Made by a program: the position numbers and the translations under genes. DNA of 61,871 nt, from IMG/VR virus record IMGVR_UViG_3300042465_001631, positions 1 through 61,871 of that record. One strand, 5' to 3'. The notes below the pieces were generated by a model, which saw only the letters and a program-made list of their open reading frames with translations, did not search any database and was not told the origin of the DNA. Positions 1-61,871 of the stretch are shown here, piece after piece; position 1 is the stretch's first letter; each line of letters opens with the position of its first letter. This DNA is from a virus (taxonomy: Duplodnaviria; Caudoviricetes).

Positions 1-127
1 CTAACGGCTGCGGGTAGCATTGCAGAGCGGGATTTGAAACCGCTACACTATCCACCGCTACAAAAAGATATTGAAAGCAGTAAAGTTAAATATGCCGTAA
101 TACCCCGCTTTGCTGCTACCCGTTGTT
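1..127. repeat. Terminal overlap, identical to 61745-61871 (circular assembly signature)
   Basis: First 127 nt equal the last 127 nt; a 127 nt overlap is typical of a k=127 de Bruijn circular contig. Confidence 0.9.
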
Positions 128-129
128 AG
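1..129 (-). repeat. attC-like site A (junction copy)
   Basis: CTAAC-ggctg-CGGGTAGCA-tt-GCAGAGCGGG ... CCCCGCTTTGC-TGCTACCCG-tt-GTTAG imperfect inverted repeat. Confidence 0.8.
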
Positions 130-154
130 GGGCTGGTATTAATAAATAAACAAA

Positions 155-406
155 ATGCAAGTTGAAAAATTACCGCAAGACGATTGGAAATTAGACAAAA
201 TTGAGTTAGAATTTAAATCTTATGGTGAAGACCAAGGAAAATACGTTGGTAAAATTCGTTTTCAAAATGGCGAATACGAAAGTTTTTCTTTTAAAATAAG
301 ACCTGATATGGCACAGCCTTATATTGAATTAATAGGTGCTGATATTGTTAAATGTGCTGAGTCGCTTGGAGCAAGATTGGCTGAGTCACTTGGATTAAAG
401 AAGTAG
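155..406 (+). CDS. Cassette-borne hypothetical protein (83 aa), identical to 59004-59255
   Basis: ORF with A-rich leader, flanked by GTTAGGGGC / GCCCCTAAC. Confidence 0.8.
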   Translation: MQVEKLPQDDWKLDKIELEFKSYGEDQGKYVGKIRFQNGEYESFSFKIRPDMAQPYIELIGADIVKCAESLGARLAESLGLKK

Positions 407-434
407 TAAAATCGGGGCGAGGTTATACTTGCCC

Positions 435-559
435 CTAACGATGGTGCTATACGAAGGAGGCGATTATTAGCACTAAAGTTGATGCGGAGTACAAAATTTG
501 AATATAGCAGAATGTTTCTGCGGAACACCGAACCGCCTCTTTTGTATAGCACGTGTTAG
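435..559 (-). repeat. attC-like site G
   Basis: CTAAC-gatg-GTGCTATAC-gaag-GAGGCG ... CGCCTC-tttt-GTATAGCAC-gt-GTTAG. Confidence 0.8.
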
Positions 560-594: not shown

Positions 595-1584
595 ATGGAA
601 TTAAACAAAATATATCATAGTGATTGGATGAATAATAATCTACCTGATAAATCGGTGCAGTTGATTATTGCAGACCCGCCATACTACAAAGTAAAAGGAG
701 ATTTTGACTTTGTATGGAAAACCTTTGACGAGTACCTGCAAGATGTAGAACGCTGGGCAATAGAATGTAAAAGAGTTTTAGCAGATAATGGAACGCTTTA
801 TTGGTATGGAGATGCTAAAAATATTGCCTATGCTCAAATCATTTTTGATAAGCATTTTAACTTATTGAATAGTTTGGTATGGGAAAACACAAACGACCAT
901 AAGCAACAAATAAGATTTAATACCGATTTGCGAACATTTGCACCACTTACTGAAAGATTACTGATGTATGAGCAAAGAGGACAAAAGACTGGAGGAGAAT
1001 TGATATTTGAGCAATTTTTAAAGCCTAAAAATCCATTTTCTAAATACCTAAAAATTGAATTTAAAAACGCTGGATTAACAAATAGAGAAATTGCACAACT
1101 ATTCCCAAGTAGAACAGGCGGATTAACTGGATGTGTTTCTAATTGGTTAAATGGTGATAATGTAATAACAGAGGAGCAATACAATGTAATTAGAGAATAT
1201 TGCAATAACAAGTATCTGCAGAAGCCATACGAGGAACTAAAAGCCGAATACGAGGAACTAAAAGCCGAATATGAAGTGCTACGCAGACCGTTTAATAATG
1301 AACGATATTATGGTGATGTGATTAGAATACCAAATTATGAAACTGGAAACCACGAACACGACACGCCAAAACCCGAAAAGCTAACAAGGGAAATAATATT
1401 AATAAGTAGCAGACCAAACGACCTTATTTTAGTTCCTTTTGCTGGAAGTGGAACGGAGTGTGCAATGGCAATAAAAGAAAATAGAAACTTTTTAGGATTT
1501 GAAATAAACGAAAAACACGTTAATTATGGAAACAAACGAACTGACAATATTAAGGCACAACCGTCATTATTTGCAGTAACGTAG
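595..1584 (+). CDS. Cassette-borne N6-adenine/N4-cytosine DNA methyltransferase (beta class) with inserted HTH-like segment
   Basis: N-terminal DPPY motif, HDTPKP and C-terminal PFAGSG SAM-binding motif; internal GLTNREIAQLF...VSNWL. Confidence 0.9.
   Translation: MELNKIYHSDWMNNNLPDKSVQLIIADPPYYKVKGDFDFVWKTFDEYLQDVERWAIECKRVLADNGTLYWYGDAKNIAYAQIIFDKHFNLLNSLVWENTNDHKQQIRFNTDLRTFAPLTERLLMYEQRGQKTGGELIFEQFLKPKNPFSKYLKIEFKNAGLTNREIAQLFPSRTGGLTGCVSNWLNGDNVITEEQYNVIREYCNNKYLQKPYEELKAEYEELKAEYEVLRRPFNNERYYGDVIRIPNYETGNHEHDTPKPEKLTREIILISSRPNDLILVPFAGSGTECAMAIKENRNFLGFEINEKHVNYGNKRTDNIKAQPSLFAVT
1227..1271 (+). repeat. 21-bp tandem repeat (YEELKAE heptads) inside the MTase gene
   Basis: ATACGAGGAACTAAAAGCCGA x2 plus a partial copy. 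Confidence 0.9.
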
Positions 1585-1610
1585 CCTTGCCACTAACTAC
1601 CTACTAACCG
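1584..1610 (-). other. Array-terminal, non-palindromic attI-like site
   Basis: GCCTTGCCACTAAC-TACCT-ACTAACC: core TAAC followed by a second ACTAAC direct repeat and no long hairpin. Confidence 0.45.
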
Positions 1611-9756: not shown

Positions 9757-10289
9757 AAGAAATATGGATTGATGTAATTAATTTTGAAGAAAATTATCAA
9801 GTATCTAATATGGGTAGATTTAGAAGTAAAGATGCCGTTATAAATAGAACTGATGGAAAGTCTTATGTAAAAAAGGGAAGAATACTAAAACCAACATACT
9901 ACTCAAACGGATACAATCAATTAATGTTATATAAAAATAAAAAAAGATATACATTTATTTCTCATAGAGTTGTAGCAAAACACTTTATACCTAATATAGA
10001 TAATAAAAAAGAAGTAAATCATATTAATAATTTAAAAGATGATAATAGGGTAGAAAATTTAGAGTGGTGTACTCCATCTGAAAATATACAAAAAGCACTA
10101 ATATATAATCCTAATTTTGGAAAAAATAGAGGAAGGGAGAATGATAGATTAACGGAGACAGATGTAATTCAAATAAAAAAAATGATTAATGATAATTTAA
10201 AAAATAGCGAAATACTATCTAAATATAAAATATCAGCATCTTCTTTTTTTAATATAAAATCTAATAAAACATGGTCTCATTTAAAATAA
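9753..10289 (+). CDS. NUMOD4-HNH homing endonuclease
   Basis: EIW...YQVSNMGRFRS; HRVVAKHF...VNHINNLKDDNRVENLEWCT. Confidence 0.9.
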   Translation: MKEIWIDVINFEENYQVSNMGRFRSKDAVINRTDGKSYVKKGRILKPTYYSNGYNQLMLYKNKKRYTFISHRVVAKHFIPNIDNKKEVNHINNLKDDNRVENLEWCTPSENIQKALIYNPNFGKNRGRENDRLTETDVIQIKKMINDNLKNSEILSKYKISASSFFNIKSNKTWSHLK

Positions 10290-33434: not shown

Positions 33435-34109
33435 TTATATATGTTTCCACGTTTTTCTATTCAATATACTAGTTACATTAGATTTAGATATAGAATACAT
33501 TTCAGATAATTTTTTATGGCTATATTTATTATTTAAATATAAATTCCTTATCGATAAAACATCTTTATCATTTAATTTTGAAGAAGTATTACACTCTCCT
33601 CTTTTTGCTGATTTTATTTTATTATCCAAATGTTTAGCAGATATTTTTTTGCCATACATATGATTATTTACACCACTATTAGCTAAAGATATTTTATCTT
33701 TATGCTCTTGACTAAGAACCTTTCCTTTATGAAATAGAGATACCTTGTCTCTTTGTTCTTGACTAATGATTTTTCCCTTATTAGGAATACTCATTTTTAA
33801 TTTAGAATCGTCTGAATGAATTAAACCCAAACAGCCGTCTCCACCATTAGTTAAATTACATAAAGTTCCATTACTCAAATCTTTTCTTCCATGCAGACTT
33901 ATAAATTCAATTTCTTTTTGCTTTATAAGTTCATAGTCATCATTTTCAAATAATATTTCTACATCATATTCAGTTTTAGAAACTATATTTAACCAATGAG
34001 AATTTCTATTTTTATTTGAATTTGCTCTCGAATATGTTTCATCAGAACCTATCCCTATATAAAACGGAACATTTTTATCTAACCTAATATGTCTATATAA
34101 ATAAGCCAT
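33435..34109 (-). CDS. Free-standing GIY-YIG homing endonuclease with NUMOD3 repeats and C-terminal HTH
   Basis: YLYRH...FYIGIG, NLTNGGDG, HSDDSKLKMS / LSQEHKDKIS repeats. Confidence 0.8.
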   Translation of the reverse strand: MAYLYRHIRLDKNVPFYIGIGSDETYSRANSNKNRNSHWLNIVSKTEYDVEILFENDDYELIKQKEIEFISLHGRKDLSNGTLCNLTNGGDGCLGLIHSDDSKLKMSIPNKGKIISQEQRDKVSLFHKGKVLSQEHKDKISLANSGVNNHMYGKKISAKHLDNKIKSAKRGECNTSSKLNDKDVLSIRNLYLNNKYSHKKLSEMYSISKSNVTSILNRKTWKHI

Positions 34110-43362: not shown

Positions 43363-43376
43363 CAAAGATAGTAAAT
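43363..43376 (-). promoter_or_regulatory. -7 promoter element ATTTACTATCTTTG
   Basis: Repeated extended motif. Confidence 0.55.
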
Positions 43377-45262
43377 TATAATTTTACTATAGTTAGTATT
43401 CTATTATTTAATATACATCTACCAACATCGGTTCTCCAATTTATACTAATAGGTTGTGTACCATCAACAGTTGTAACACAAGTTAAAGCTACATCTTCTG
43501 TATACGTGTAGTATCTTCTTAATCTACTGGAGTTTGGAACCATTGTATTCCCATTATATATACTAAACATATTAGTACTACCTAATTGTTGAGTATCATC
43601 ATAAGCATTTCCATTAAATATACTTGTTGCAAATATAGTAACATTTCCAAAATTAGTACCCATATCTCCTGTTATTACTGCTAAAGCTGTATTTGCAACA
43701 TTACCTTGATTTGTAAAGCAAAGGAAGTTTTCCAATATACCCATATTGATAACACTTATTGCAGTTGGTTTAGATTGTATTCCTGAGCTAAATGCTAAAG
43801 CACCACTTGTAGAAAACAATCTACCATTAAAAATACAATTTGCACCTAAAGCAGCAGCTGCTCCATAAGCAATAAAGTTTCCACTAACAACATTATCTGC
43901 ACCAATTCCTACAGCTCCAATAGCCATAAAAAATACATTAGCAGCATTAGCACTATTACTCAATTGAATAGTGGTTGCAATTGCTGTGTTTATAGCTCCT
44001 GTTACTCTAAATATAAATAAAGCATTTGGATCACCTCCACCATCAAGCGTTAGTGTTCCAGCAACTGACATAGCTCCTGAAACTGTATAAACTCCAGCTG
44101 TAATAGTTTCTCCTGAACCAAAAGTTAATCCATGAGTTCCTGTAGCTGGTGTATTTAATAGTGCTAGATACATATTCTGTAAATCTAGTGTAGCTATTGT
44201 ACAAACATTTCCAGGTATTACATCATAGTTTCCATTAAAATCTACTTTATAAGTTCCTGCAGGGGGAGTTATAGTCATACCTGTTACTACTACATCTGTT
44301 AAAGAAGTTGTTGATACTTCTTCTGATGCATTTATAGAGTTATAATATCCACCACTAACTGTAACTACATTCCCATTTGCATCAACTCCTATTGCTTGTC
44401 CTGTTGATGTTGGAGAAGAACTTGTTAGTCTTTCAAGTCTTAGACCAGAATCATTAGCAGCTTCACCATATATATGAAGTCTTTTTGTTGGCGCTATTGT
44501 TCCTATACCTATCTTACCTACATTGTCTATATAAAGTCTTGTAGTTGATGACGTCCTTAAATGTAAAAAATTCTGATTACCCCCATAAAACATAGTTGAA
44601 CCTGATAATTCAGCTACATATACATCGCCAATAGTTATTGAATTATTTGCAGGAACAAGATTAATACCTAATAATCCTGTTGCATCAGCAGCTCTTATGC
44701 TTCCTATTACATGCAAAGGTACTTGTGGACTTGTTGTGAGTATTCCTAATCTATTATTTGTGTCATTCCAAAAGAAATTAGGATTATCTTGCGCAATTGT
44801 TGTTCCATTTGAGAATAATACAGATCCAGATGTTAATGGACCTATAACTGCTCCTGGACCTTGTGGACCTATTGGACCTTGTTCTCCAGCTGGACCTACA
44901 GCACCTTGTAATGCAAGTAATGCCCAATGTGTTGGATCTAAGTAAGGCTCTATAGTTCCATCAGTAGCTAATATACAGAAATAAGAACCATTATTATTAC
45001 CAACAGCATCATCCTCTATATAAGAAGTTCCTGATTCCCATTCTCCTCTCCATTCTAATCCTGCTGGACCAACTGCACCTGGTGCTCCTGTTAATCCTAT
45101 CTCTCCCTGTGGACCAATAGGTCCCTGTTCTCCAGGACCTACAAATTCTGCAATATCCTCTATGGTAAAAGGCTCTGTTGTTTTGTTCAACACAGCAGAC
45201 TTTCTTTCTACTAAGTCAACCGATGTCGCTATTCCTATAAATCTTGTACCATTTGGTATCAT
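43376..45262 (-). CDS. Collagen-repeat fibre protein with inserted DUF3494 (ice-binding-type) domain
   Basis: G-X-Y repeats, NRLGI / GKIGIGT..P fibre repeats, ITAGVY...LTLDGGGDPNALFIFRV...NAANVFF. Confidence 0.75.
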   Translation of the reverse strand: MIPNGTRFIGIATSVDLVERKSAVLNKTTEPFTIEDIAEFVGPGEQGPIGPQGEIGLTGAPGAVGPAGLEWRGEWESGTSYIEDDAVGNNNGSYFCILATDGTIEPYLDPTHWALLALQGAVGPAGEQGPIGPQGPGAVIGPLTSGSVLFSNGTTIAQDNPNFFWNDTNNRLGILTTSPQVPLHVIGSIRAADATGLLGINLVPANNSITIGDVYVAELSGSTMFYGGNQNFLHLRTSSTTRLYIDNVGKIGIGTIAPTKRLHIYGEAANDSGLRLERLTSSSPTSTGQAIGVDANGNVVTVSGGYYNSINASEEVSTTSLTDVVVTGMTITPPAGTYKVDFNGNYDVIPGNVCTIATLDLQNMYLALLNTPATGTHGLTFGSGETITAGVYTVSGAMSVAGTLTLDGGGDPNALFIFRVTGAINTAIATTIQLSNSANAANVFFMAIGAVGIGADNVVSGNFIAYGAAAALGANCIFNGRLFSTSGALAFSSGIQSKPTAISVINMGILENFLCFTNQGNVANTALAVITGDMGTNFGNVTIFATSIFNGNAYDDTQQLGSTNMFSIYNGNTMVPNSSRLRRYYTYTEDVALTCVTTVDGTQPISINWRTDVGRCILNNRILTIVKL

Positions 45263-45306: not shown

Positions 45307-45873
45307 ATGGAATTTAAACCAAAATTACGTAAAAACTACGACAGATACGAACCAAAGTACGACTACTTGAAATATTACAAGGTAGTTCGGTACTGGGTAA
45401 AGCGAAAGTATGGTGTCGGAACATCTGACCTTGAGATGCTGTGCTTCTTGTACACTCAAAAACTATTCAAGCGTGCAGACTTTAAAGAATACGAGTGCCT
45501 ATTCGCATGGGATGTGAATCGATTCCAAAGACTTATGGATGAGGGGTGGATCTCTCGTTGGCGTGAACGCAAAGGAACAGAGGGTGCTTTATATGAACTA
45601 TCACAGAAGGGTAAGCTGTTGATTACTACCGTGTACAGAAAGCTAAATGGAGAGGAGCCTATATCTGAGGCTCAACAGAACAATCCACTATTCAATACAA
45701 ACGTGTCATATACTGACAATATGTACAAGAGAATTATAAAGACAATGAATATAAACTATGCCGAAAAAAGAAGGCTGAAGAAGATAGACGAAATCGCCTT
45801 TCAAAAACAGCCTTGTACAATTGAAAAAAGGAAAGCTATAGGACTACCACCACATCCCTTTCTTGAATTATAG
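45307..45873 (+). CDS. Winged-helix (MarR-like) DNA-binding protein; only + strand gene in the late arm
   Basis: DLEMLCFLY...FQRLMDEGWISRW...LYELSQKGK; start moved to ATG 45307, downstream of the promoter. Confidence 0.6.
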   Translation: MEFKPKLRKNYDRYEPKYDYLKYYKVVRYWVKRKYGVGTSDLEMLCFLYTQKLFKRADFKEYECLFAWDVNRFQRLMDEGWISRWRERKGTEGALYELSQKGKLLITTVYRKLNGEEPISEAQQNNPLFNTNVSYTDNMYKRIIKTMNINYAEKRRLKKIDEIAFQKQPCTIEKRKAIGLPPHPFLEL

Positions 45874-46102
45874 TATAGGGTATATTCTCTATTAACATAG
45901 TATATCCAGCTCCTTTATCGTAGTAGATATAATTTCCCTCGTTAACGCAGTCTACATTCGTGCCTGGCTTTACTACTAGCCCCTTCTTGTATCTAAACTT
46001 CTCAGCATCACTACCCGTAAGTAGTAACCCTGATTCTGTTTTTATCTGTTCATCAATCGTTGTGATTAAAATGTATTTATTTATTGGAATTGCTGTCATC
46101 AT
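45836..46102 (-). CDS. groES: Co-chaperonin GroES
   Basis: KTESGLLL mobile loop, G.VV..G, ERDVV; adjacent to GroEL. Confidence 0.8.
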   Translation of the reverse strand: MMTAIPINKYILITTIDEQIKTESGLLLTGSDAEKFRYKKGLVVKPGTNVDCVNEGNYIYYDKGAGYTMLIENIPYTIIQERDVVVVL

Positions 46103-48681
46103 TACGCTCGTGTCATTGTTATAATTGCATTTGTACTTAATATCGTAGTGGCTACACTCACCGCATTCTTCAGTGCGTTCTTCGTAACCTTCAGTGGATC
46201 AATTACACCCATCTTGAACATATCACCATATACCTCATTCTTAACATCATACCCTTGATCCTTACCAAATGGAACCTCCATCACCTCATAACCATCCAAC
46301 CCAGCATTGGTCATGATCTGTAGCAATGGTGCTTGTATAGCCCTTGCTATAATATGCATCGCTGCGTACTGGTTAGCACTAATGTCATCAATCGTGTCAT
46401 CTGCGTTAGCGATAATCGTGTAAGACTCACTGAATAAGGCTAAACCTCCTCCTGGCAAGATACCTTCCTCTAATGCAGAACGTACAGCACATACTGCGTC
46501 ATCAACTCTGTCTTTACGTTCTTTCTGCTCAAGGTCTGAGTTACCTCCTACGTAAATTACACCAATACCTCCTGTCAAGCTAGCAATACGCTGTTTGATA
46601 AAGTCCTTGTCTGACTTTCTATTTGATAGGTTATAGCTATCCCAAAGCTGAGAAACTCTATCGTTGATCTCGTCGCTTGCAACCTCTGACCTTACAATCA
46701 CAGTGTTGTCTCTTCCTACAATGATCTTGTCTGCTCTACCAAGGTCGTCAACGCTAATAAGGCTCAAGTCATCTCCAGTGCTCTCTGAGAAATACTTAGC
46801 TCCTACAGCCAGTGCAATGTCACCCATCAACTCGTTACGTTTATAACCAAACTGAGGAGGTATAATGTTGCATAACCTCAATCCCTTCTGTACTACGTTG
46901 GCAGCCAATGTGTTAATAACATTCTGACTACACGTACCGATGATCAATAGCTTCTTCTGTTGCTGTATAACTGGCATAAGTACCTTCTCAATTGACAAGA
47001 TATTATTTATCTCTTGATCCGTAACAAGTACCAGTACATCATCCATAATGCACTCGTCTTTCTTATGGTTGTTGATGAACATGTTCGATGTATATCCTCT
47101 ATCAATCTTAATACCATTGGTAACCTGCGTATACGTCTCTGATGTCTGAGAGTCCTCGATAGTGACAATACCATCCTTACCAACCTTCTCGTATGTGCTC
47201 GCTATAATACCGCCAAGCTCCGTGTCATTGTTGGCTGAGATTGATGCCACGTTCTTCAGCGTCTTTCCGCTAACCTTCTTGGACCTCTTCTCCAGACTAG
47301 TTACCAACCTATCAGTTACGTCGTTCATGTGTCTAATAACCTCTGTGATGTTGTGCTTGTCGTTCAAAATCTCTTGACCTTGCTTAACAATAGCCTCTGT
47401 AAGCACAATCGCTGTTGTGGTATTGTGAGTAGGAATATAATTATCTGTTATGTATAAGTGGTTTTCATTACTTACCTTTATACACATCATTTCTGTTCTA
47501 ATTCCAGTATTTACTACGTTTACTATTTTAGCTCCGTACTTATATCCAGATAATTGAGCTATTCTATGAATACTTTTATTTGAGTATGAATTAACATCAT
47601 TCTCTCTTGAATGTAATCTCCTGTTAAAAGAATGACCAAGACTAACGATTAATTCTTGAAAGTCGTCAGCTAATTTATCAGAAACCGTACTAAATTCAAA
47701 TAACCCTCTTTTATTAATATATCCGTCAGTAGCTAATAGTCCTTCTAATAATCTTTTTCTATCCTCTATTGGGGAATATAAATAAGTTTCTGGTATTAAT
47801 TTCGTATCGCTTTTTGTTCCAAGTAAACCTATTGAATTAACTAAATCAAACATAGTAAGTCCAGATTCAGTAACTCCTTTAAATTTTACTCTAAAATAAT
47901 TCTTATCATCACACCATCTAACTGATGTAGTTATTCCGTCTGGAATAATTATACTGCTAATTATATGTTCTTTATTTAATCCAAGAGATAACTCAATAGC
48001 TCCTGTTCCGCTTAAACTACCATCACCAAGAAGTACACCTACTAAAAATGGATCTAACGGCATAGGATTTACTTGAGTAAACTCAACTGGAGACGTTTCT
48101 ATAAAATATTTGTATGTATTTGAATTATCTTTATTTAAAGATGAAAAATCTTTCATTATATCTAAAGTAGTAATAGTTTTAGATACTCCGTAATTAGTTG
48201 TAACGGTCCATAAATGATTTTCAGAACACTCAACTAACCTTCCATCTCCAAATGAAACTTCGTATATGTCTAAATTTCCTTTAGGGAATACCCCTAAAAC
48301 AGTTTGACTAGTTTCGTGAGTTCCGCAAATAGTATCTCCAACACTTAAATCACTTATCTTAGTCCATCCAAATGGGGTTAAGACATTGGCATCTAATGGT
48401 TGTGGTCCATCTCCTGCACTAGTCGCTGTGCGATCTGCCGCTTCCTTCATCATCTTAACTGCTAGGTTCTCTACTGGATCGATGAGGTAAATAGACTTGG
48501 CTACTGTTACCCCATCTTTCGTGACTGTAATTCCATGCGTGTGCTCTGGTGATTCAATCAAGACTGTCTTACCTCGTGGTCCGAGTGTGCTCTTAACTGC
48601 CTTGGCAATAGTGGTGATGCCATTAATTAACTTATCCCTTCCTTCTGTATCGAAGACTAAATCCTTTGGACTGTAACTCAT
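46102..48681 (-). CDS. groEL: Chaperonin GroEL containing an intein
   Basis: STLGPRG, VTKDGVTVAK, AGDG/TTT, KDRVDDA, PGGG, GVIDP; start set at MSYSPK, downstream of TATATTTG. Confidence 0.95.
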   Translation of the reverse strand: MSYSPKDLVFDTEGRDKLINGITTIAKAVKSTLGPRGKTVLIESPEHTHGITVTKDGVTVAKSIYLIDPVENLAVKMMKEAADRTATSAGDGPQPLDANVLTPFGWTKISDLSVGDTICGTHETSQTVLGVFPKGNLDIYEVSFGDGRLVECSENHLWTVTTNYGVSKTITTLDIMKDFSSLNKDNSNTYKYFIETSPVEFTQVNPMPLDPFLVGVLLGDGSLSGTGAIELSLGLNKEHIISSIIIPDGITTSVRWCDDKNYFRVKFKGVTESGLTMFDLVNSIGLLGTKSDTKLIPETYLYSPIEDRKRLLEGLLATDGYINKRGLFEFSTVSDKLADDFQELIVSLGHSFNRRLHSRENDVNSYSNKSIHRIAQLSGYKYGAKIVNVVNTGIRTEMMCIKVSNENHLYITDNYIPTHNTTTAIVLTEAIVKQGQEILNDKHNITEVIRHMNDVTDRLVTSLEKRSKKVSGKTLKNVASISANNDTELGGIIASTYEKVGKDGIVTIEDSQTSETYTQVTNGIKIDRGYTSNMFINNHKKDECIMDDVLVLVTDQEINNILSIEKVLMPVIQQQKKLLIIGTCSQNVINTLAANVVQKGLRLCNIIPPQFGYKRNELMGDIALAVGAKYFSESTGDDLSLISVDDLGRADKIIVGRDNTVIVRSEVASDEINDRVSQLWDSYNLSNRKSDKDFIKQRIASLTGGIGVIYVGGNSDLEQKERKDRVDDAVCAVRSALEEGILPGGGLALFSESYTIIANADDTIDDISANQYAAMHIIARAIQAPLLQIMTNAGLDGYEVMEVPFGKDQGYDVKNEVYGDMFKMGVIDPLKVTKNALKNAVSVATTILSTNAIITMTRA
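47422..48405 (-). mobile_element. 328 aa LAGLIDADG intein, class-3-type (Pro1, W-C-T triplet)
   Basis: PQPLDANVLTP start; CSENHLW; LVGVLLGDG and LLEGLLATDG; MMCIKV...IPTHN/T end. Confidence 0.9.
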
Positions 48682-48708
48682 TTTATTATATTTAATTGTT
48701 TTATGGGA

Positions 48709-48716
48709 CAAATATA
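48709..48716 (-). promoter_or_regulatory. -7 promoter element TATATTTG for groEL
   Basis: TAnnTTTG. Confidence 0.5.
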
Positions 48717-48840
48717 CAAAAAAAAACGCATATCACTTAAGACACACGTTTATCTGTTATACTTTACTCAAATATAACTTTCACCCAACTATAACATCAT
48801 GATGTCCAAAATCGTTGCTGCCTTGGCTGTCCACAACTAT

Positions 48841-48863
48841 TTCTTCATGATTATGTTATGATG
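48841..48863. repeat. 23-bp direct repeat, copy 1 (copy 2 at 49349-49371)
   Basis: TTCTTCATGATTATGTTATGATG flanks gene 48869-49342. Confidence 0.85.
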
Positions 48864-48868
48864 AACTA

Positions 48869-49342
48869 TTAGTTATATACTCTTATTTCAATTAACGTAT
48901 TATTTAGTATTCCATCTTTTTCTATACTATTATTATTAGTTATATCTACATCTACTGTAGTTAATACTAAATAATTAGTCTCTCCTTCATCAAGTATATT
49001 TGCATAAGTACAGTACGTATTAAGTCCTGATATTACTCCAATACTTACATTACCATTAGGATTAGGGCATACTGTTTTCCCTATTGTAAAAAAATTAATC
49101 CCATTAATTAAATATACTCCAATTCTATCGTATGTAAACCAAATATCCCCAATAGTGTTTTCTAATACAGTTGCCACTGGAGCATTTTCTCCGCTTTGTG
49201 TTAACAAAGCTGTATAAACCTTATAGCCCTTAATATCATCAAGAGTAAATGCCTCAGTCTGATCATTAACCAACTTGCTCCTTTTTTCAGTTAGATCTAC
49301 GCTAGGAGCAATGCCTATGAATCTAAACCCATTAGTAGCCAC
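48869..49342 (-). CDS. Short fibre/decoration-like protein
   Basis: N-terminus like 43376-45262, C-terminus like 37449-37904. Confidence 0.65.
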   Translation of the reverse strand: MATNGFRFIGIAPSVDLTEKRSKLVNDQTEAFTLDDIKGYKVYTALLTQSGENAPVATVLENTIGDIWFTYDRIGVYLINGINFFTIGKTVCPNPNGNVSIGVISGLNTYCTYANILDEGETNYLVLTTVDVDITNNNSIEKDGILNNTLIEIRVYN

Positions 49343-51128: not shown

Positions 51129-51473
51129 TCAATGACACCAAGGGTTCACGTTGTTTATTGTTTTTATTGGTATTTTGATTCTAAGGAATAAACTCAGGAT
51201 TTTAATGCTAGTGTATGTATTGGTTTATTATCGTGGCGCAAATGTAGCTTAAAATCGATTTAGGAGGTCGCACGTGCTGACTAACCCCCGTTAGTTAAAT
51301 TTACTCAAAATATCATTTACATATTATAGTACTAATAATGATAAAAGCCCTATTCTATTGACTTGTATAATATCTTTATGGTTAAACCCTATTAATCAAA
51401 ACAAACTATCGTTGATAATCAAGTAGTTAGAAAATAAACTGTTAAAGTTTTCCCAATTTTTTAGCAAGTATAG

Positions 51474-51503
51474 TTTGTAATTCAAACATGCGTTGTAAGT
51501 TTG
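51474..51503 (+). promoter_or_regulatory. Early promoter TTTG-N18-TAAGTTTG; a second similar element at 51558-51589
   Basis: Bacteroidota -33/-7 consensus; both elements end in TTTGTACCA. Confidence 0.55.
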
Positions 51504-51799
51504 TACCAGCAAAACAGATAAAGGATATTATTTAAAATCATAAAGTTTTGTTAAAAATTTGCAGGTATCAAATAAAAGTATTTAATTTGTACCATAATAA
51601 TAAAGCAGTAAAATATTCAGGTTGACGTGTTTAAAAACATTAGTTAACGGTGTTGAGGTCGAAAGGCTTCCGCCAGGTTTAATAAACTTATGCAATGCGC
51701 TTGCATATCTTTATTAAGCGATATAAGACTATATTATTGTGATATATTAACGGTGGTTCGCAACCCCTATAGTCTACTAACATTTAAACACTATGCATT

Positions 51800-57380: not shown

Positions 57381-57403
57381 TTATTATATTATATTTGCAT
57401 TTC

Positions 57404-57473
57404 AGCTACGTGGTATAGTGGTATTATATTGAGTTTTTCCTCATTGAGGCAGGTTCGATTCCTGTCGTAGTGC
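57404..57473 (+). tRNA. tRNA-like cloverleaf with a 6-nt anticodon loop (pseudo-tRNA, identity unassignable)
   Basis: GCTACG/CGTAGT acceptor, TAGTGGTA D-loop, TGAG/CTCA stem, GCAGG-TTCGATT-CCTGT T-arm; TATATTTG promoter at 57390. Confidence 0.55.
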
Positions 57474-57531
57474 TAAACAAACAGGGTAGCCGAAAACTGA
57501 TTAGAGTAGGCGAATTTAAAATAAAATAAAA

Positions 57532-57855
57532 ATGGAATTAACAGGGAAAATTGAAGTAATTAGTTTGAATGTAGGAAATGAAAAATTCAAAAAAAGCGAA
57601 TTAGTAGTAACCACAGATGAAAAATATACACAAAGTATCTTAATTGAGTTTGGTGGTGATAAATCAGACTTAATAGATGCTTATAAAGTAGGAGACGAAG
57701 TAGAGGTATCGATTAATATTGGAGGTAGAAAATGGACTAATCCAGAAGGTATTGACAAGTACTTCAATTCGATAAAGGGATGGAAAATCAAAAAACTATC
57801 TGAAGAGGCACAACCAACGCAAGCACAGGAACTAGCAGATATTCTTCCATTCTAA
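57532..57855 (+). CDS. DUF3127 single-stranded DNA-binding protein
   Basis: MELTGKI...VGDEVEVSINIGGRKW...YFNSIKGWKI; DILPF tail. Confidence 0.85.
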   Translation: MELTGKIEVISLNVGNEKFKKSELVVTTDEKYTQSILIEFGGDKSDLIDAYKVGDEVEVSINIGGRKWTNPEGIDKYFNSIKGWKIKKLSEEAQPTQAQELADILPF

Positions 57856-57862
57856 ACTAACT

Positions 57863-57889
57863 AAGCCTCCTGTAAAACGGAGGCTTTTT
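57863..57889 (+). terminator. Intrinsic terminator
   Basis: AAGCCTCC...GGAGGCTTTTT. Confidence 0.75.
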
Positions 57890-57902
57890 AACAAAACAAA
57901 TT

Positions 57903-58109
57903 ATGAAAAACACAATAAATTATTTAGGACACGAGTTTGAATATAGATTCAGTTATTCACCAGGAAGACCAGCAACTCACGAAGATCCAGAAGAATATGA
58001 AGAGTTTGATATTTACGACATTACATTAAATGGTATAGACGCAACTGACTTATTAGACAGACAAATTGATGATTTTGAAGGAGAAGTAATTAGATACCTT
58101 AAAGACTAA
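57903..58109 (+). CDS. Small acidic hypothetical protein
   Basis: ORF track. Confidence 0.6.
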   Translation: MKNTINYLGHEFEYRFSYSPGRPATHEDPEEYEEFDIYDITLNGIDATDLLDRQIDDFEGEVIRYLKD

Positions 58110-58207
58110 TGGAAAATATAGCAGCATTTTTAGTAGGATGTTTCTTCGTCCTATTTATATGGGTAAATACTTGGATCTATGAACAGTGGAATAATAAATT
58201 GAAGTAA
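58109..58207 (+). CDS. 32 aa membrane peptide whose TAA stop forms the first TAAC core of the array
   Basis: TAATG coupling; MENIAAFLVGCFFVLFIWV... Confidence 0.45.
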   Translation: MENIAAFLVGCFFVLFIWVNTWIYEQWNNKLK

Positions 58208-58233
58208 CGGATGGTGTTACCGCTAGTTGTGGG
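58204..58233 (-). repeat. Half attC-like site at the array's left end
   Basis: GTAACGGATGGTGTTACCGCTAGTTGTGGG resembles the left arms of sites G and D; no matching right arm found. Confidence 0.45.
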
Positions 58234-58276
58234 TTTTTACCGAAAAATTAATTATAAATACTAAATACAAAAAAAT

Positions 58277-58810
58277 ATGGGATGTGATATACACAGTTTT
58301 GCCGAAATAAAAAGAAACGGTAAATGGGAAAAAGTAGGAGAACATTTTTCGTTAGGAGAATGGGAAAAAGAATATTATAAAAAAGAAAAAAACGACAGTC
58401 CTTTTGATTGGAGAAGTTATTCAATGTTTGCATTTTTAGCTGATGTTAGAAATTATGACCATTGCGAACCAATAAGCGAACCAAAAGGAATACCCGAAGA
58501 TGTTTGTGACGAAATCAAAAGCGAATATGATGATTGGGAAAGTGACGCACATTCATCGTCTTACTTGACACTAAAAGAACTTTTAGATTTTGATTACGAT
58601 AAAGTGTTTTGGAACAGAAGAATTAATAGAACTACGTATAATGAAAATGGTGGTAGTTATACTAACGGAGCGTCATTAGCAGAAGAAGGAGAAGGAACTA
58701 ATGTAACGTATAGAGAAAATCTAGGAGAATTTTTCTTTATTCATTTGAAAGAATTGGAAGAATTAGGAAATCCTGATGAAGTCAGAATAGTTTTTTGGTT
58801 CGACAATTAA
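58277..58810 (+). CDS. Hypothetical phage protein (MGCDIH family) in the first, degenerate cassette
   Basis: MGCDIH...RSYSMFAFLADVRN...RIVFWFDN. Confidence 0.8.
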   Translation: MGCDIHSFAEIKRNGKWEKVGEHFSLGEWEKEYYKKEKNDSPFDWRSYSMFAFLADVRNYDHCEPISEPKGIPEDVCDEIKSEYDDWESDAHSSSYLTLKELLDFDYDKVFWNRRINRTTYNENGGSYTNGASLAEEGEGTNVTYRENLGEFFFIHLKELEELGNPDEVRIVFWFDN

Positions 58811-58849
58811 CTAAATTTCATTAAGAACCGCTAATGTAGTAATTAGCAT

Positions 58850-58978
58850 CTAACGGCTGCGGGTAGCATTGCAGAGCGGGATTTGAAACCGCTACACTAT
58901 CCACCGCTACAAAAAGATATTGAAAGCAGTAAAGTTAAATATGCCGTAATACCCCGCTTTGCTGCTACCCGTTGTTAG
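58850..58978 (-). repeat. attC-like site A
   Basis: Same as 1-129. Confidence 0.8.
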
Positions 58979-59003
58979 GGGCTGGTATTAATAAATAAAC
59001 AAA

Positions 59004-59255
59004 ATGCAAGTTGAAAAATTACCGCAAGACGATTGGAAATTAGACAAAATTGAGTTAGAATTTAAATCTTATGGTGAAGACCAAGGAAAATACGTTGGTA
59101 AAATTCGTTTTCAAAATGGCGAATACGAAAGTTTTTCTTTTAAAATAAGACCTGATATGGCACAGCCTTATATTGAATTAATAGGTGCTGATATTGTTAA
59201 ATGTGCTGAGTCGCTTGGAGCAAGATTGGCTGAGTCACTTGGATTAAAGAAGTAG
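59004..59255 (+). CDS. Cassette-borne hypothetical protein (83 aa)
   Basis: Identical to 155-406. Confidence 0.8.
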   Translation: MQVEKLPQDDWKLDKIELEFKSYGEDQGKYVGKIRFQNGEYESFSFKIRPDMAQPYIELIGADIVKCAESLGARLAESLGLKK

Positions 59256-59283
59256 TAAAATCGGGGCGAGGTTATACTTGCCC

Positions 59284-59414
59284 CTAACGGTATCTCGCTT
59301 TGTGTCAGTGGCGGATTAAAAAAGACTGACTTTCCGATTAATAACTAAACATACAAAAATGCAAGAAACATTAAATTTAGACCAAAACCCGCCATTGCAC
59401 AAAACTAGTGTTAG
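59284..59414 (-). repeat. attC-like site B
   Basis: CTAAC...TTTGTG-t-CAGTGGCGG ... CCGCCATTG-CACAAA...GTTAG. Confidence 0.75.
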
Positions 59415-59907
59415 CAAATCGGTTCCGAAAATTAAAACTTATGTGCTAACAGTTTCAGAATTTTTCCCTAAAACGCACAATAAATCAGGATTACCAACAG
59501 GATTTATTGATAAAATCGGAAGCAAAATTAAAAAGCACACCATTCGTGGAAATTACGAATTATGGAAAAAAAGAATTGAAGAAATACAAAAAGGAAATGC
59601 TGTTTTATCAATTCGTTATTGGCTTGGAAAACCTTATAATTCCAAGCAAAAAGAAGTTCATGTTTTAGATAAATATTCTGGAATTGGAGTTCAAAAATTA
59701 ACTTTTGAAGAGATGATTATGACTTGCGAAGATGTTTTAGAAACAAAATCAAAAGTAGGACTGCATATTTGGAAACCAAATTTTTCAAATATTAAAACTC
59801 TAGCGAAAAATGACGGACTTGAATTTGAAGATTTTAAAGAATGGTTTAAAGGTTATGATTTAAACGAACCAATGGCAATAGTTCATTTTACCGATGAACG
59901 TTATTAA
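59359..59907 (+). CDS. Cassette-borne ASCH/PUA-like protein; ORF begins inside site B
   Basis: KKHTIR...W and LAKNDGL...F..WF motifs. Confidence 0.6.
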   Translation: MQETLNLDQNPPLHKTSVSKSVPKIKTYVLTVSEFFPKTHNKSGLPTGFIDKIGSKIKKHTIRGNYELWKKRIEEIQKGNAVLSIRYWLGKPYNSKQKEVHVLDKYSGIGVQKLTFEEMIMTCEDVLETKSKVGLHIWKPNFSNIKTLAKNDGLEFEDFKEWFKGYDLNEPMAIVHFTDERY

Positions 59908-59914
59908 CTGTTTG

Positions 59915-59989
59915 CTAACGTTCCCACGATAGGGGCTGTTTGCCTATGCGGTTGCGTAAATTCGGCAAATAGACATTATCGTGTGTTAG
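59915..59989 (-). repeat. attC-like site C (short, 75 bp)
   Basis: CTAAC...ACGATA..CTGTTTGCC ... GGCAAATAG..TATCGT-gt-GTTAG. Confidence 0.75.
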
Positions 59990-60040
59990 CACCAGTAGCG
60001 GATTAATTAAACAAAAATATTAACTTAAAACAAAATAAAT

Positions 60041-60187
60041 ATGCCACCATTAAAAGAATACAGATTTGAGGATATGATGAACTCAAATGTACAAGTAGTA
60101 ATTAAATCATACAGCTTTACACAGGCTTATGAAATTTTGGTAATGATAACTAAACACCCTGCGGATTTTAAATGTACGAGTTTGTAG
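60041..60187 (+). CDS. Cassette-borne 48 aa protein (not in ORF track)
   Basis: MPPLKEYRFED...KCTSL fills the gap between sites C and D; A-rich leader. Confidence 0.65.
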   Translation: MPPLKEYRFEDMMNSNVQVVIKSYSFTQAYEILVMITKHPADFKCTSL

Positions 60188-60196
60188 CTATTGGTG

Positions 60197-60328
60197 CTAA
60201 CGTACGTTGAGCATTGTTGTAGTTGTGGATTAGGGCTGCCAAATTATCGATTAAACACTAATACAACCAAGTACAAAAACCAATTATTAATTAAGCCAAA
60301 TGCCACAATTGCCACAACGCATTGTTAT
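60197..60328 (-). repeat. attC-like site D
   Basis: CTAAC...GCATTGTTGTAGTTGTGG ... CCACAATTGCCACAACGC-att-GTTAT. Confidence 0.75.
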
Positions 60329-60354
60329 ATGATGGCTTTTTATTCACACAAATT

Positions 60355-60621
60355 ATGAAAGATTTTAAACAATTCAGAAGAAGTCAAATTGCAGAAATTA
60401 GAGAAGTAACAGAAGTAGATATTAATGTATTTAAGAATCACGGATTTATATATATATCAGAATATCTATTTGGTTTTAATATATCAATTTCCGATGCAGA
60501 TAAAAATAACGGAAGCCCTAAAATTGGCGATATGATTGCAAGAAATCCAAAAGACTACTCTGACCAATGGTTAATAGCTGAACAATATTTCAAAGATAAT
60601 TTTGAACAGTTAGTTGAGTAA
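60355..60621 (+). CDS. Cassette-borne hypothetical phage protein
   Basis: SISDADKNNGSPKIGDMIARNP...DQWL; start at ATG 60355. Confidence 0.75.
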   Translation: MKDFKQFRRSQIAEIREVTEVDINVFKNHGFIYISEYLFGFNISISDADKNNGSPKIGDMIARNPKDYSDQWLIAEQYFKDNFEQLVE

Positions 60622-60629
60622 GCTATCAT

Positions 60630-60715
60630 ATAACGGAAAAGCTTGTAGCTGTATGCCAAGAAAAACGTGAATCTAAAGAAAATAGTCGTAGCATATAGCT
60701 ACAAGCGTGTGTTAG
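60630..60715 (-). repeat. attC-like site E
   Basis: ATAAC-ggaaaa-GCTTGTAGCTGTATGC ... GCATATAGCTACAAGC-gtgt-GTTAG. Confidence 0.8.
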
Positions 60716-60749
60716 GGTGCGTAGTGGGTAATTAAAAATAAAAGTTATT

Positions 60750-61421
60750 ATGAAAAAGAATGTTTTAGAATTATTTGCAGGATCCCGCTCAATAGGAAAT
60801 AAAGCCGAGCAATTAGGAATGAATGTTTTTAGCGTAGATTGGACACCATACGAAAAAATAGATTTATCAATTGATATTGAATTATTGACTAAAGACCAAG
60901 TCCCATTTATTCCTGATGTTGTATGGGCAAGTCCTGATTGCACAACTTATACGATTGCCGCAATATCACATCATAGAAATGGAACAGAACCTAAAAGCGA
61001 TTATGCTTTAAAATGTGATAATGTAAATAAGCACTGGCTAGGCTTAATAAATGAATGGTTAATCATTAATCCTAAAATGGTATTCTTTATTGAAAATCCT
61101 CGTGGAATGATGCGAAAAATGCCGTTTATGAAAGGATTACAAAGAACTACTGTATGGTATTGTACTTACGGAGATTCGAGAGCAAAACCAACTGACATCT
61201 GGAGCAATAATATACAATCAATTTTTAATCAAAACGGATGGAATCCAAGAGCTGAATGTTTTAACGGTAATAAAAAATGCCAACACGAAAGCGCACCGAG
61301 AGGATCAAAAACAGGGACACAAGGAAAAAAAGGAAGTTACAACCGTTCTAAAATACCTGAATTATTATGCGAGGATGTGCTAAATTCAATTATGAATGAT
61401 AATCGTAGCTATGCACCCTAA
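60750..61421 (+). CDS. Cassette-borne short C5-cytosine DNA methyltransferase-like protein
   Basis: LELFAGS (motif I), ASPDC (IV), IENP (VI), KPT; stop codon is the TAA of the next core. Confidence 0.8.
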   Translation: MKKNVLELFAGSRSIGNKAEQLGMNVFSVDWTPYEKIDLSIDIELLTKDQVPFIPDVVWASPDCTTYTIAAISHHRNGTEPKSDYALKCDNVNKHWLGLINEWLIINPKMVFFIENPRGMMRKMPFMKGLQRTTVWYCTYGDSRAKPTDIWSNNIQSIFNQNGWNPRAECFNGNKKCQHESAPRGSKTGTQGKKGSYNRSKIPELLCEDVLNSIMNDNRSYAP

Positions 61422-61545
61422 CGGCGGATGCTACACGATGGCTGGGAAAAGCACACACCCAAACTTCGGATAATGACTGATTAAAAAAGTACAAACTGAA
61501 CTTTAAATTTAAAAATTAACCCAACTATTGTATAGCGTATGTTAG
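61418..61545 (-). repeat. attC-like site F
   Basis: CTAAC...ATGCTACACGATGGCTGGG ... CCCAACTATTGTATAGCGT-at-GTTAG. Confidence 0.75.
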
Positions 61546-61570
61546 CAGTAGTTATAATACAGAATTTGTT

Positions 61571-61738
61571 ATGAAAGCACTATGCTTAATTATTTGGATG
61601 ATTATTTCATTATTATTTGTTTGCAGTATCATTGGATTGGTAATGTTTATACCTAAAGACAATTGGCAAAATCAAGAAAACACACCATCAACTTGGTATT
61701 CTATTGGTAAAAAATTGTTGAACAGTGTGGTTGAATAA
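61571..61738 (+). CDS. Cassette-borne 55 aa membrane protein (not in ORF track)
   Basis: MKALCLIIWMIISLLFVCSIIGLVMF...; fills the gap between sites F and A. Confidence 0.65.
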   Translation: MKALCLIIWMIISLLFVCSIIGLVMFIPKDNWQNQENTPSTWYSIGKKLLNSVVE

Positions 61739-61744
61739 TTACTG

Positions 61745-61871
61745 CTAACGGCTGCGGGTAGCATTGCAGAGCGGGATTTGAAACCGCTACACTATCCACC
61801 GCTACAAAAAGATATTGAAAGCAGTAAAGTTAAATATGCCGTAATACCCCGCTTTGCTGCTACCCGTTGTT
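61745..61871 (-). repeat. attC-like site A, equal to the terminal overlap with 1-127
   Basis: Identical to window start. Confidence 0.85.

Follow-up and report, generated by a model that had tools for sequence, protein, structure and literature searches.

The gene array that crosses the ends of this circular phage genome probably consists of nine cassettes running from core to core, with folded sites of a family common to Bacteroidota phages and Flavobacterium-type chromosomes, where the arrays lie beside an Xer-like recombinase, and with the enzyme acting in trans. The evidence comes from the sites themselves, from covariation within their stems, from gain, loss and duplication of cassettes bounded by cores, and from the linkage of the sites to the recombinase gene.

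Organization of the cassette array

The window, i.e., the whole stretch of 61,871 nt analyzed here, is a circular contig of a lake-water phage with an end overlap of 127 nt, bases 1-127 repeating 61745-61871 (assembly overlap). The array begins at 58205, crosses the circular junction and ends at 1597, and the end overlap shows that this is a real continuation, as the earlier note had proposed when it extended the array to 1610. It occupies bases 58205-61744 and 1-1597 (5.1 kb) and holds nine cassettes with one gene each; eight of the nine are distinct. Seven distinct imperfect palindromes (TAACG...TGTTA) of 73-130 nt, one ahead of each small gene, were found within 1 nt of where they had been placed, and a core-only site and a terminal core bound the array on its two sides (Table 1). 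In agreement with the note, one gene lies between each successive pair of sites. A cassette thus defined extends between two consecutive TAA|CG cores and contains the folded site, then a short leader, then one gene. Intergenic gaps within the array measure 103-193 nt, compared with mostly less than 60 nt elsewhere in the window.

Table 1. Sites, genes and boundaries of the array, listed in array order across the circular junction (R1, covariance model described in the text).
Feature	Position	Strand	Remarks
Left boundary, core-only site (TAACG, 5 nt, TGTTA)	58205..58219	+	Overlaps stop codon of 32-aa ORF 58109-58207
Cassette 1 gene, 177 aa, phrog_10141, no assigned function	58277..58810	+	
Site A, 127 nt	58851..58977	+	Fold; R1 59.8 bits; copy at 61746-61871/2-128
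Cassette 2 gene, 83 aa, no assigned function	59004..59255	+	Within 440-nt unit 58850-59289
Site B, 129 nt	59285..59413	+	Fold; R1 107 bits
Cassette 3 gene, 182 aa, phrog_8581 from residue 26	59359..59907	+	
Site C, 73 nt, short class	59916..59988	+	Fold; R1 31.3 bits, E 5e-4; outside training set
Cassette 4 gene, 48 aa, no assigned function	60041..60187	+	
Site D, 130 nt	60198..60327	+	Fold; R1 82.5 bits
Cassette 5 gene, 88 aa, no assigned function	60355..60621	+	
Site E, 84 nt, short class	60631..60714	+	Fold; R1 35.1 bits, E 9e-5; outside training set
Cassette 6 gene, 223 aa, DNA methyltransferase (phrog_757)	60750..61421	+	
Site F, 126 nt	61419..61544	+	Fold; R1 71.8 bits
Cassette 7 gene, 55 aa, hydrophobic	61571..61738	+	
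Second copy of 440-nt cassette	1..440	+	Site A' 2-128 and 83-aa gene 155-406; identical to 58850-59289
Site G, 123 nt	436..558	+	Fold; R1 69.6 bits
Cassette 9 gene, 329 aa, N6/N4 DNA methyltransferase	595..1584	+	PF01555 at 9e-40; phrog_67
Right boundary, terminal core CACTAAC	1591..1597	+	Homology to relatives starts again beyond

Homology to the relatives L004 and L007 stops at 58203/58210, at the left boundary, where L007 has a full palindrome instead of the core-only site, and homology to L007 restarts at 1586, at the right boundary. The cassette 1 gene is missing in all 77 of 77 primase-linked relatives. Sites and genes can overlap: the full-length palindrome of site B carries the ATG of ORF 59359 in its loop and encodes the N-terminus of that ORF in its right arm, and the TAA stop codon of the cassette 6 gene is part of the TAAC core of site F. 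The recognizable cargo of the window array consists mainly of DNA methyltransferases, and sister arrays carry methyltransferases, Mom and an Acb2/Tad1-like protein; the array is probably a bank of counter-defence genes.

Sites conserved in structure rather than sequence

When folded, every site forms a long stem and a variable loop, and a short additional run of bases behind TAACG stays unpaired on the left arm. The TAAC start, GTTA end, asymmetric unpaired stretch by the core, stem and loop described before are all seen in the folds. The training set of the covariance model R1 comprised 110 sites from other phages and five window sites (A, B, D, F and G). A search of the 61.9-kb window with R1 returned the array sites and their copies only, all on the + strand and at 31-107 bits, with the next best match at 14.2 bits (E 0.93); the matches of the five training sites are partly by construction, those of C and E are not. 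The bare pattern TAACG-N100-125-TGTTA gave 10 matches versus 4.08 ± 1.93 in shuffles (0/100 shuffles reach 10), and four of these matches fall outside the array, on the - strand and without the fold. The bare pattern alone is weak evidence, and R1 is the discriminating test.

The long-class sites (129, of which 112 are non-redundant) mostly differ in sequence. In an alignment of 115 non-redundant sites, 14 of 20 stem pairs show compensatory changes, one of them occurring as GC 32, UA 24, AU 22 and CG 21 times, indicating that the arms differ while pairing is kept, as had been noted for the seven palindromes. Two G.T pairs are conserved, in 110/115 and 97/115 phage sites and in 83/83 and 81/81 bacterial sites, and a manual tally of the other stem pairs in the 115-site alignment gave 107 G.T versus 23 A.C. 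For the bacterial sites 94.9% of cells are paired versus 67.5% in shuffles, in an alignment that had been fitted to the model. The G.T-tolerating strand is sense to the cargo in phages and antisense in bacterial arrays, where 42 ORFs lie opposite the fold strand versus nine on the same strand, five of these nine in the phage-type locus L211. Because the same G.T-bearing fold is sense in phages and antisense in bacteria, it is a feature of the DNA and not of the mRNA.

The latter result bears on the idea that the palindromes between the early genes function at the mRNA level (as processing sites, stabilizers or terminators), with breaks found there since recombinants within genes are lost. In phages the foldable strand is indeed the sense strand and tolerates G.U pairs, A-rich leaders and sometimes a start codon lie in the loops, and related phages without such sites also have mosaic breakpoints at gene borders, so that selection alone can put breakpoints between genes. 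Such a role is nonetheless highly improbable in view of the bacterial arrays, which have the same fold and the same two G.T pairs antisense to their cargo, the 60-fold enrichment of sites beside the recombinase gene, and independent junctions that fall on the same 4-6 nt core; moreover, no Rfam model matches the sites.

Cassette cores as breakpoints

The 440-nt cassette is duplicated exactly, with CTAACG at both ends, and assembles as a unitig of its own, with roughly double the depth of its flanks, in four runs, which were examined as contigs, not reads, and three of which perhaps represent the source sample. Its depth of 183 in run X1 is close to the sum of the flanks (85 + 99), with similar ratios in X2 and X4, and these depths would also be compatible with a separate 2.9-kb circle of equal abundance. 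Cassettes are common to other phages as well: L007 4194-4718 and L089 117-642 match at 95% from CTAACG to CTAACG, and L085 and L087 have a common stretch (2922-3692) from TAACG to CTAAC|. In run X4, a lake metagenome, one contig joins 61422 to 1598 (TAAC|TAC) with three cassettes lost; X2 and X4 both have a different sequence ahead of 61419. Relatives with 80-89% identical flanks carry entirely different genes between the boundary cores (0/8 array proteins in common), the gain and loss at cores that a comparison of relatives had been expected to reveal. The proposed shufflable accessory-gene array is thus borne out by cassettes that are duplicated, common to other phages and lost exactly at cores. 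Duplication ends, common cassettes and the X4 junction all place the crossover in CTAA|CG, with the 6-nt core as the limit of resolution. Exchange is not confined to one core, since L078 has the same gene as cassette 3 behind a different palindrome and the boundaries on the right are imprecise, homology between copies of palindrome B ending 0-16 nt past GTTA.

Near-identical copies of site B lie in seven other viral contigs, ahead of different genes. This recurrence of a near-identical 130-nt unit in eight contexts, with both flanks differing, is what miniature mobile elements upstream of genes would look like if they served as portable homology on which the phage's own exonuclease, annealing protein and SSB could act, a role proposed for PeSL motifs; the array does lie next to genes for an SSB and an exonuclease VIII-like protein. 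We consider this explanation unlikely, as most sites differ (112/129 non-redundant) and so offer no homology, the events run from core to core of different sites with only 5-6 nt in common, and the arrays lie near a tyrosine recombinase, with no transposase found near them. PeSL (promoter-terminator) motifs are conserved in sequence and work by homologous recombination. According to the available parts of two reports (PMC2839356, PMC4122927), they are found in hyperplastic regions of lytic phages and, like the sites described here, those of T4-type phages are intergenic stem-loops that flank small accessory genes and mark swaps. In contrast to PeSL motifs, the arms of our sites differ, only the 5-6 nt core is common to them, and a dedicated recombinase accompanies the family.

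Linkage to an Xer-like recombinase

The recombinase that accompanies these sites in phages is an Xer-like tyrosine enzyme of 267 aa, encoded for example at L094 5238-6041; across 23 recombinase sequences its catalytic residues R, K, HxxR, H and Y do not vary. At 80 phage loci, 202 same-strand sites lie in 278,924 bp upstream of the recombinase versus five in 407,853 bp downstream. The arrays are directly upstream, and 54 of the 57 loci with at least 1 kb of upstream sequence contain a site. L007, the closest array-bearing relative of the window, has 11 R1 matches at 55-102 bits. Around homologous bacterial recombinases R1 gave 83 matches in 80 loci, 78 of them downstream and on the opposite strand; these loci are mostly from Flavobacteriaceae, and in Flavobacterium chromosomes the homologue is followed by arrays of same-family sites.

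The window sites belong to the family of these recombinase-adjacent arrays, with the untrained sites C and E reaching 31-35 bits. In the window itself, a search of its 86 ORFs gave no PF00589 match, and neither TIGR02249 nor tblastn with the array-linked recombinase found a match; the array end, accordingly, carries no recombinase gene. A profile of the attI-like motif from 22 loci matched the window array end at E 35 only, which is not significant. As the genome is complete and holds no recombinase or remnant, the window array is an orphan, and its activity in this phage is a prediction. Because the phage lacks a recombinase, the enzyme would have to act in trans and come from a co-infecting phage or from the array on the host chromosome. 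We propose that the TAACG strand, which is gene-sense in phages, would fold as single-stranded DNA, and that the recombinase would bind the TAAC/GTTA box and cut at TAA|C. Recombination between two sites would then excise a cassette as a circle, which could be re-inserted by recombining with another core.

Relation to integrons and CALINs

Integrons, including the sedentary chromosomal ones, are the textbook gene-capture engine of bacteria; they have attC-bounded cassettes and an attI site next to the integrase gene, and IntI with its special domain is what defines them. The arrays resemble them in having small single genes, mostly promoterless-looking, that are separated by structure-conserved imperfect palindromes. 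The window sites, too, are imperfect palindromes conserved in structure over sequence, with inverse AAC/GTT core boxes that match those of integrons and a crossover inside the core. In the wider system, a tyrosine recombinase stands at one array end, mostly with a simple TAAC-bearing site beside it, and site orientation is fixed relative to the recombinase end.

In contrast to integrons, the recombinase is XerA/XerC/D-like. It scores 143-208 bits on TIGR02249 (cut-off 265) and aligns with VchIntIA in two pieces, leaving about 48 IntI residues between the lysine hairpin and HxxR unmatched. By these comparisons it lacks the IntI-specific additional domain near patch III that marks an integron integrase. 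In phages the cargo genes are encoded on what reads as an attC bottom strand, so that the site precedes the gene, and the phage recombinase gene is downstream of the array and co-directional. This strand call equates the window gene strand with the aadA7 'bottom' oligo in Table S3 of PMC9892861, provided that forward oligos are bottom strands as the legend suggests. An ORF on the attC top strand followed by its attC is not seen in the window or in phage arrays but is found in same-family bacterial arrays. The sites also have a build of their own, with a 4-nt bulge after TAACG, two fixed G.T pairs and a length of mostly ~125 nt, and the window, unlike an integron, has no recombinase. With nine sites in 5.1 kb, candidates for attC under the defining model, and no recombinase it has the architecture of a CALIN, a cluster of at least two neighbouring attC sites without an integron integrase close by. 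Because the array-linked recombinase lacks the IntI domain and phage cargo is inverted, 'integron-like' is the right name and 'canonical integron' is not. Of the integron attC architecture claimed in the earlier note, the integron-like part therefore holds, given the covarying AAC/GTT sites, with the Xer-like enzyme, the inverted cargo and the lack of any recombinase in this phage as qualifications, and 'integron attC sites' in the strict sense goes beyond the data.

CALINs in virulent phages, including Polaribacter phage P12002L, for which two sites are reported, were described by Qi et al. 2023 (PMC9892861). As far as that report goes, the P12002L CALIN resembles the window array in belonging to a lytic flavobacterial phage, with DNA methyltransferase genes between attC-like sites and no integrase, and P12002L_attC1 has the same TAACG...TGTTAG build. 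Compared by eye, its oligo in Table S3 is the gene-sense strand of L091 29974-30077. Within the published material available to us, P12002L_attC1 is the only site of this family in print, and section 3.4 and Tables S1-S4 of PMC9892861 mention neither a partner recombinase nor covariation nor cassettes that move in nature.

The same site bears on whether the window array is a canonical CALIN, i.e., true attC sites from a classical integron that are served by a host IntI. HattCI called P12002L_attC1 an attC, but the combined HattCI+INFERNAL search missed it, and this site, the sole member of the family assayed at the bench, was alone among six in giving no IntI1 recombinants (PMC9892861). The CTAAC...GTTAG cores are those of classical attC sites, and the ends of the duplication suggest a crossover that agrees with G|TT of R', which is AA|C on the bottom strand; against this stand the TIGR02249 scores of the array-linked recombinase, its missing IntI residues and the inverted cargo orientation. 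In addition, the IntegronFinder 2.0 report lists one complete integron in Bacteroidetes, in Salinibacter. A canonical CALIN is thus quite unlikely.

Overall, we lean towards the view that Bacteroidota and their phages run a second kind of integron, with an Xer-type recombinase without the IntI domain and folded single-strand sites of its own. Lytic phages would use it as a rapidly reshuffled counter-defence bank with inverted cargo, and phages without the enzyme would borrow it from a co-infecting phage or the host. If so, cassette exchange through folded sites, carried out by a simpler, Xer-like enzyme, either arose or survived outside the IntI clade. The system is widespread in a phylum in which the standard tool detects hardly any integrons. 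Its occurrence in virulent phages would explain in concrete terms how small accessory genes turn over; anti-defence genes could be sought as what sits between sites, and the simple pair of recombinase and site would be amenable to bench work. These recombinase-linked arrays look scarcely described, and we found no name for them in print.

Two further observations were made by eye. The P12002L genome, in which R1 has no match at E 0.01, contains further candidate sites of the window type. In most of the 34 recombinase loci displayed, the motif TAAC-TAYTATATGTAAA lies ~55 nt before the recombinase start.

Structure and specificity of the sites

The window carries a real and specific array in which cassettes are gained, lost and duplicated at the cores, the TAAC or CTAACG boxes. 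The array belongs, as an orphan, to an integron-like system that is run by a Xer-type recombinase.

Inspection of the sequence and folding confirmed seven distinct palindromes (A–G) where the earlier note had placed them, with site A present twice. The sites are 73–130 nt long, start with TAACG and end with TGTTA, usually followed by a G. They fold into stems of 13–25 bp, compared to the 15–20 bp claimed; the loop varies, and the left arm has a few additional unpaired bases following TAACG. The apparent shortness of site B arose only from an ATG in its loop at which ORF calling begins, and its right arm falls within ORF 59359, the gene of the third cassette. In many sites (59359–59440 and sites of the loci L007, L087 and L088), an A-rich leader and an ATG in frame lie in the loop, so that the N-terminus of the cargo protein is translated from the right arm and GTTA core. 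At gene 59359, ATT stands in place of the ancestral ATG in both the window and the phage contig L078, and the start codon comes from two different palindromes.

The bare core-gap-core pattern was dropped as a criterion, as it gave 10 matches compared to 4.08 ± 1.93 in shuffled sequences (about 2.5 times chance). Because this pattern is not rare, a covariance model of long-class sites (R1) was trained on five of the window's sites together with 110 non-redundant ones from other phages. Applied to the whole window with filters off, R1 matched only the array sites (31–107 bits, all on the plus strand), and the next best match reached 14.2 bits. The short sites C and E, which are not part of the training set, scored 31.3 and 35.1 bits. 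No Rfam family matched the palindromes in a search of 57400–61871.

In line with the original proposal, structure is kept rather than sequence: 112 of 129 long-class sites gathered next to recombinase genes share few 12-mers with any other, and the stem pairs covary. RNAalifold predicted 20 pairs on an alignment of 115 sequences, 14 of them with compensatory changes, and one stem position is occupied by GC 32, UA 24, AU 22 and CG 21 times. Two G·T pairs are nearly fixed, one between the G of TAACG and the T of TGTTA (110/115) and a second one inside the stem (97/115). A hand tally of the other pairs in the 115-site table gave 107 G·T cells versus 23 A·C cells; thus, the TAACG strand is the one whose fold is kept. 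This bias is seen only in the 115-site alignment, as plus- and minus-strand fold energies of the seven window sites showed no consistent bias.

Cassette breakpoints at the cores

The idea of a shufflable array that changes at its cores was borne out by cassette gain, loss and duplication. Comparison of the locus in relatives, a check suggested by the earlier note, revealed flanks of 80–89% identity with the likeness ending at 58203/58210 and returning at 1586 or 1812. None of the eight array proteins of the window is found in 77 primase-linked loci, and L007 carries an array of its own with 11 sites at the same locus.

Within the window, a 440-nt unit consisting of site A and the 83-aa gene of cassette 2 is present in two identical copies, and the identity begins and stops at CTAACG with zero extra bases in common. 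The window stretch is present in four lake-water metagenome runs (X1–X4), in all of which the unit forms a separate contig. In X1 its depth is 183 and that of the flanks 85 and 99; the corresponding values are 63 versus 36 and 34 in X2, and 14 versus 4.4 and 5.2 in X4; in X3 it is lower, at 11 versus 7–12. These depths fit two copies per genome, a reading in which contigs cannot prove linkage. X4 is a run not marked as a possible source. One of its contigs ends at 61422 and then runs on into 25 letters with a single occurrence in the window, at 1598, so that CCCTAAC is joined to TACC and the last three cassettes are gone. The T of site F's TAACG (61419) is preceded by different sequence in X2 and X4. 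No joints were listed inside the placed stretch for the run sequences placed on the window. A crossover within TAA/CG would account for the duplication as well as for the X4 deletion; this is the position that PMC9892861 states for attC, G/TT of R'.

Two further cassettes, counted as independent events, have similar borders: L007 4194–4718 and L089 117–642 match at 95% from CTAACG to CTAACG, and L085 and L087 have a common cassette (2922–3692) that runs from TAACG to CTAAC. Palindrome B is found nearly unchanged in seven other contigs, in front of different genes, with a left end that is sharp at TAACG and a right end 0–16 nt past GTTA; a search of the "phages" collection revealed no copy of it. 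In L078, gene 59359 of the window lies behind another palindrome, with likeness from the right core on. The copies of palindrome B and L078 speak against a single-core rule. Members of the same phage group without these sites have breaks at gene borders, too.

A Xer-type recombinase adjoins phage arrays

The complete contig L078 has seven sites, and its last cassette is directly followed by a co-oriented gene for a 267-aa tyrosine recombinase. Among 117 relatives of this recombinase in IMG/VR, 80 loci were examined with a site detector based on TAACG, a GTTA or GTTG partner, a DNA fold of at most −10 kcal/mol and at least 12 arm pairs. In these 80 of 117 loci, 202 same-strand sites lie upstream of the recombinase gene (278,924 bp) and 5 downstream (407,853 bp), with 5 and 7 sites, respectively, on the other strand. 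Where at least 1 kb upstream of the recombinase is available, 54 of 57 loci have a site.

All 23 aligned recombinases retain the catalytic R, K, HxxR, H and Y. The models nearest to the phage enzyme are those of the XerA type (NF040815, 191 bits) and those of XerC and XerD, and in the PDB two XerA structures match it best. Its score with the integron-integrase model is 143 bits, compared to a cut-off of 265. Alignment with VchIntIA, an IntI, gave two pieces, leaving ∼48 VchIntIA residues between the lysine hairpin and HxxR without counterpart; this is where the IntI-specific domain lies as described in PMC9668308 and PMC8138268.

Two phage recombinase genes, L133:5684–6484 and L138:1827–2624, carry in-frame stops at residues 28 and 91, and therefore some arrays may adjoin a broken recombinase gene. 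By eye, a motif TAAC-TAYTATATGTAAA was seen ∼55 nt before the phage recombinase start; a profile of this attI-like motif had no significant match in the window, including the terminal CACTAAC region, or in L007.

A Pfam scan of ORFs, the integrase model and tblastn detected neither a recombinase gene of the array-linked type nor a remnant of one in the window, from which we infer that the enzyme must come in trans. A recombinase supplied in this way would move the cassettes of the window.

The same sites in bacteria

A scan of species-representative genomes yielded at least 562 recombinase relatives, the best 80 of which are mostly from Flavobacteriaceae and other Bacteroidota. At an E-value of 0.001, R1 had 83 matches in these best 80 loci: 78 are on the strand opposite to the recombinase and downstream of it, and the other five belong to the phage-like loci L176 and L211 and show the phage arrangement. 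Among the loci of this set with at least 2 kb downstream, 26 of 44 have an R1 match. Flavobacterium terrisoli, F. saccharophilum and F. cheonanense each encode one homologue of 344–347 aa (our own ORF calls) that is 42% identical to the phage recombinase and scores 222–227 bits with NF040815 and 204–208 bits with TIGR02249, the integron-integrase model. These genes are followed by 4–9 sites with one ORF between successive sites.

Stems of the bacterial sites covary as well. In an alignment fitted to the model, 94.9% of their stem cells are paired versus 67.5% in shuffles, a value reached by 0 of 500 shuffles, and slid controls stay at or below 48%. Relative to the TAACG strand, 42 ORFs of the bacterial arrays are opposite and nine are the same, five of the latter in L211. 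The fold with the same G·T pairs is thus antisense to the cargo in bacteria but sense in phages, which favours a feature of the DNA strand and disfavours an mRNA element.

Relation to integrons and cargo

The bacterial arrays have the same classical build as integrons, an ORF followed by its site, whereas in phage arrays cargo and recombinase have the reverse orientation with respect to the sites. Seen from the recombinase end, site orientation is the same in both kinds of array. Qi et al. 2023 (PMC9892861) report virulent phages that carry CALINs; one of these is Polaribacter phage P12002L, whose attC1 oligo (their Table S3) has the same build as the window's sites. This attC1 is given there as a HattCI-only prediction and as the only one of six sites that yielded no verified IntI1 recombinants. 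The IntegronFinder 2.0 report gives a single complete integron for Bacteroidetes. At an E-value of 0.01, R1 had no match in P12002L (L091) or in L002–L004. By eye, L091 29166–41005 contains at least four intergenic palindromes (TAACG or CAACG to GTTAG or GTTAC) beyond the two published attC calls; these are short, precede methyltransferase and small genes, and are missed by the long-site R1. A literature search covering papers other than subscription ones found no description of the recombinase-linked system, and only PMC9892861 was directly relevant.

The window cassettes encode two DNA methyltransferases and six small proteins without assigned function, one of them twice. The sister arrays contain 267 ORFs, 260 of them non-redundant (median 92 aa). 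Scanning the first 150 gave Pfam matches at 1e-4 for 19, including seven DNA methyltransferases, Mom, an Acb2/Tad1 hairpin domain, a PAPS-reductase-like protein, a GNAT, an HD domain and a dATP/dGTP pyrophosphohydrolase.

Genome context and additional features

The window contig is circular, with its first 127 bases equal to the last 127, and its record classifies it as 100% complete with direct terminal repeats. The "phages" collection held no close relative of the genome; Flavobacterium, Cellulophaga and Tenacibaculum phages are weak DNA and protein matches. From the SSB to the primase gene all intergenic gaps are 103–193 nt, and genes elsewhere are tightly packed. A direct repeat at 44634/60762 was rejected as chance likeness. 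The muzzle-domain match raises the possibility that this flavobacterial lake phage has a crAss-like podovirus tail.

Coordinates of features in the window
Feature	Position	Strand	Description
440-nt unit, copy	58850–59289		site A and 83-aa gene
440-nt unit, copy	61745–61871 plus 1–440		site A and 83-aa gene
SSB gene	57532–57855
Primase gene	1816–4227
tRNA-like gene	57404–57473		just 5' of SSB gene; Rfam tRNA 37.5 bits; "tRNA-???" in ARAGORN, anticodon call of two bases
DUF805b RNA motif match	57480–57512		33 nt, after tRNA-like gene; 33.2 bits, below gathering score 35.6
GroEL gene	46102–48681	−	859 aa, phage-encoded; appears interrupted by LAGLIDADG-type insert, possibly an intein
GroES gene	45836–46102	−	adjoins GroEL gene
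Collagen-like gene	43376–45262	−	628 aa; Gly-X-Y repeats and ice-binding-like domain; presumably fibre or receptor-binding protein
Muzzle-domain gene	20073–20813	−	C-terminal domain of crAss-virus muzzle protein, PF25729, 3.5e-13
Homing-endonuclease-like gene	9753–10289	+	free-standing; of this pair, one has NUMOD4 and HNH_3, the other NUMOD3
Homing-endonuclease-like gene	33435–34109	−	free-standing; see preceding row
Non-coding stretch	48682–49341		660 nt, at leftward/rightward gene-block switch; TAACG present, no R1 match; may hold origin or early promoters
Non-coding stretch	51179–51799		621 nt, as preceding row
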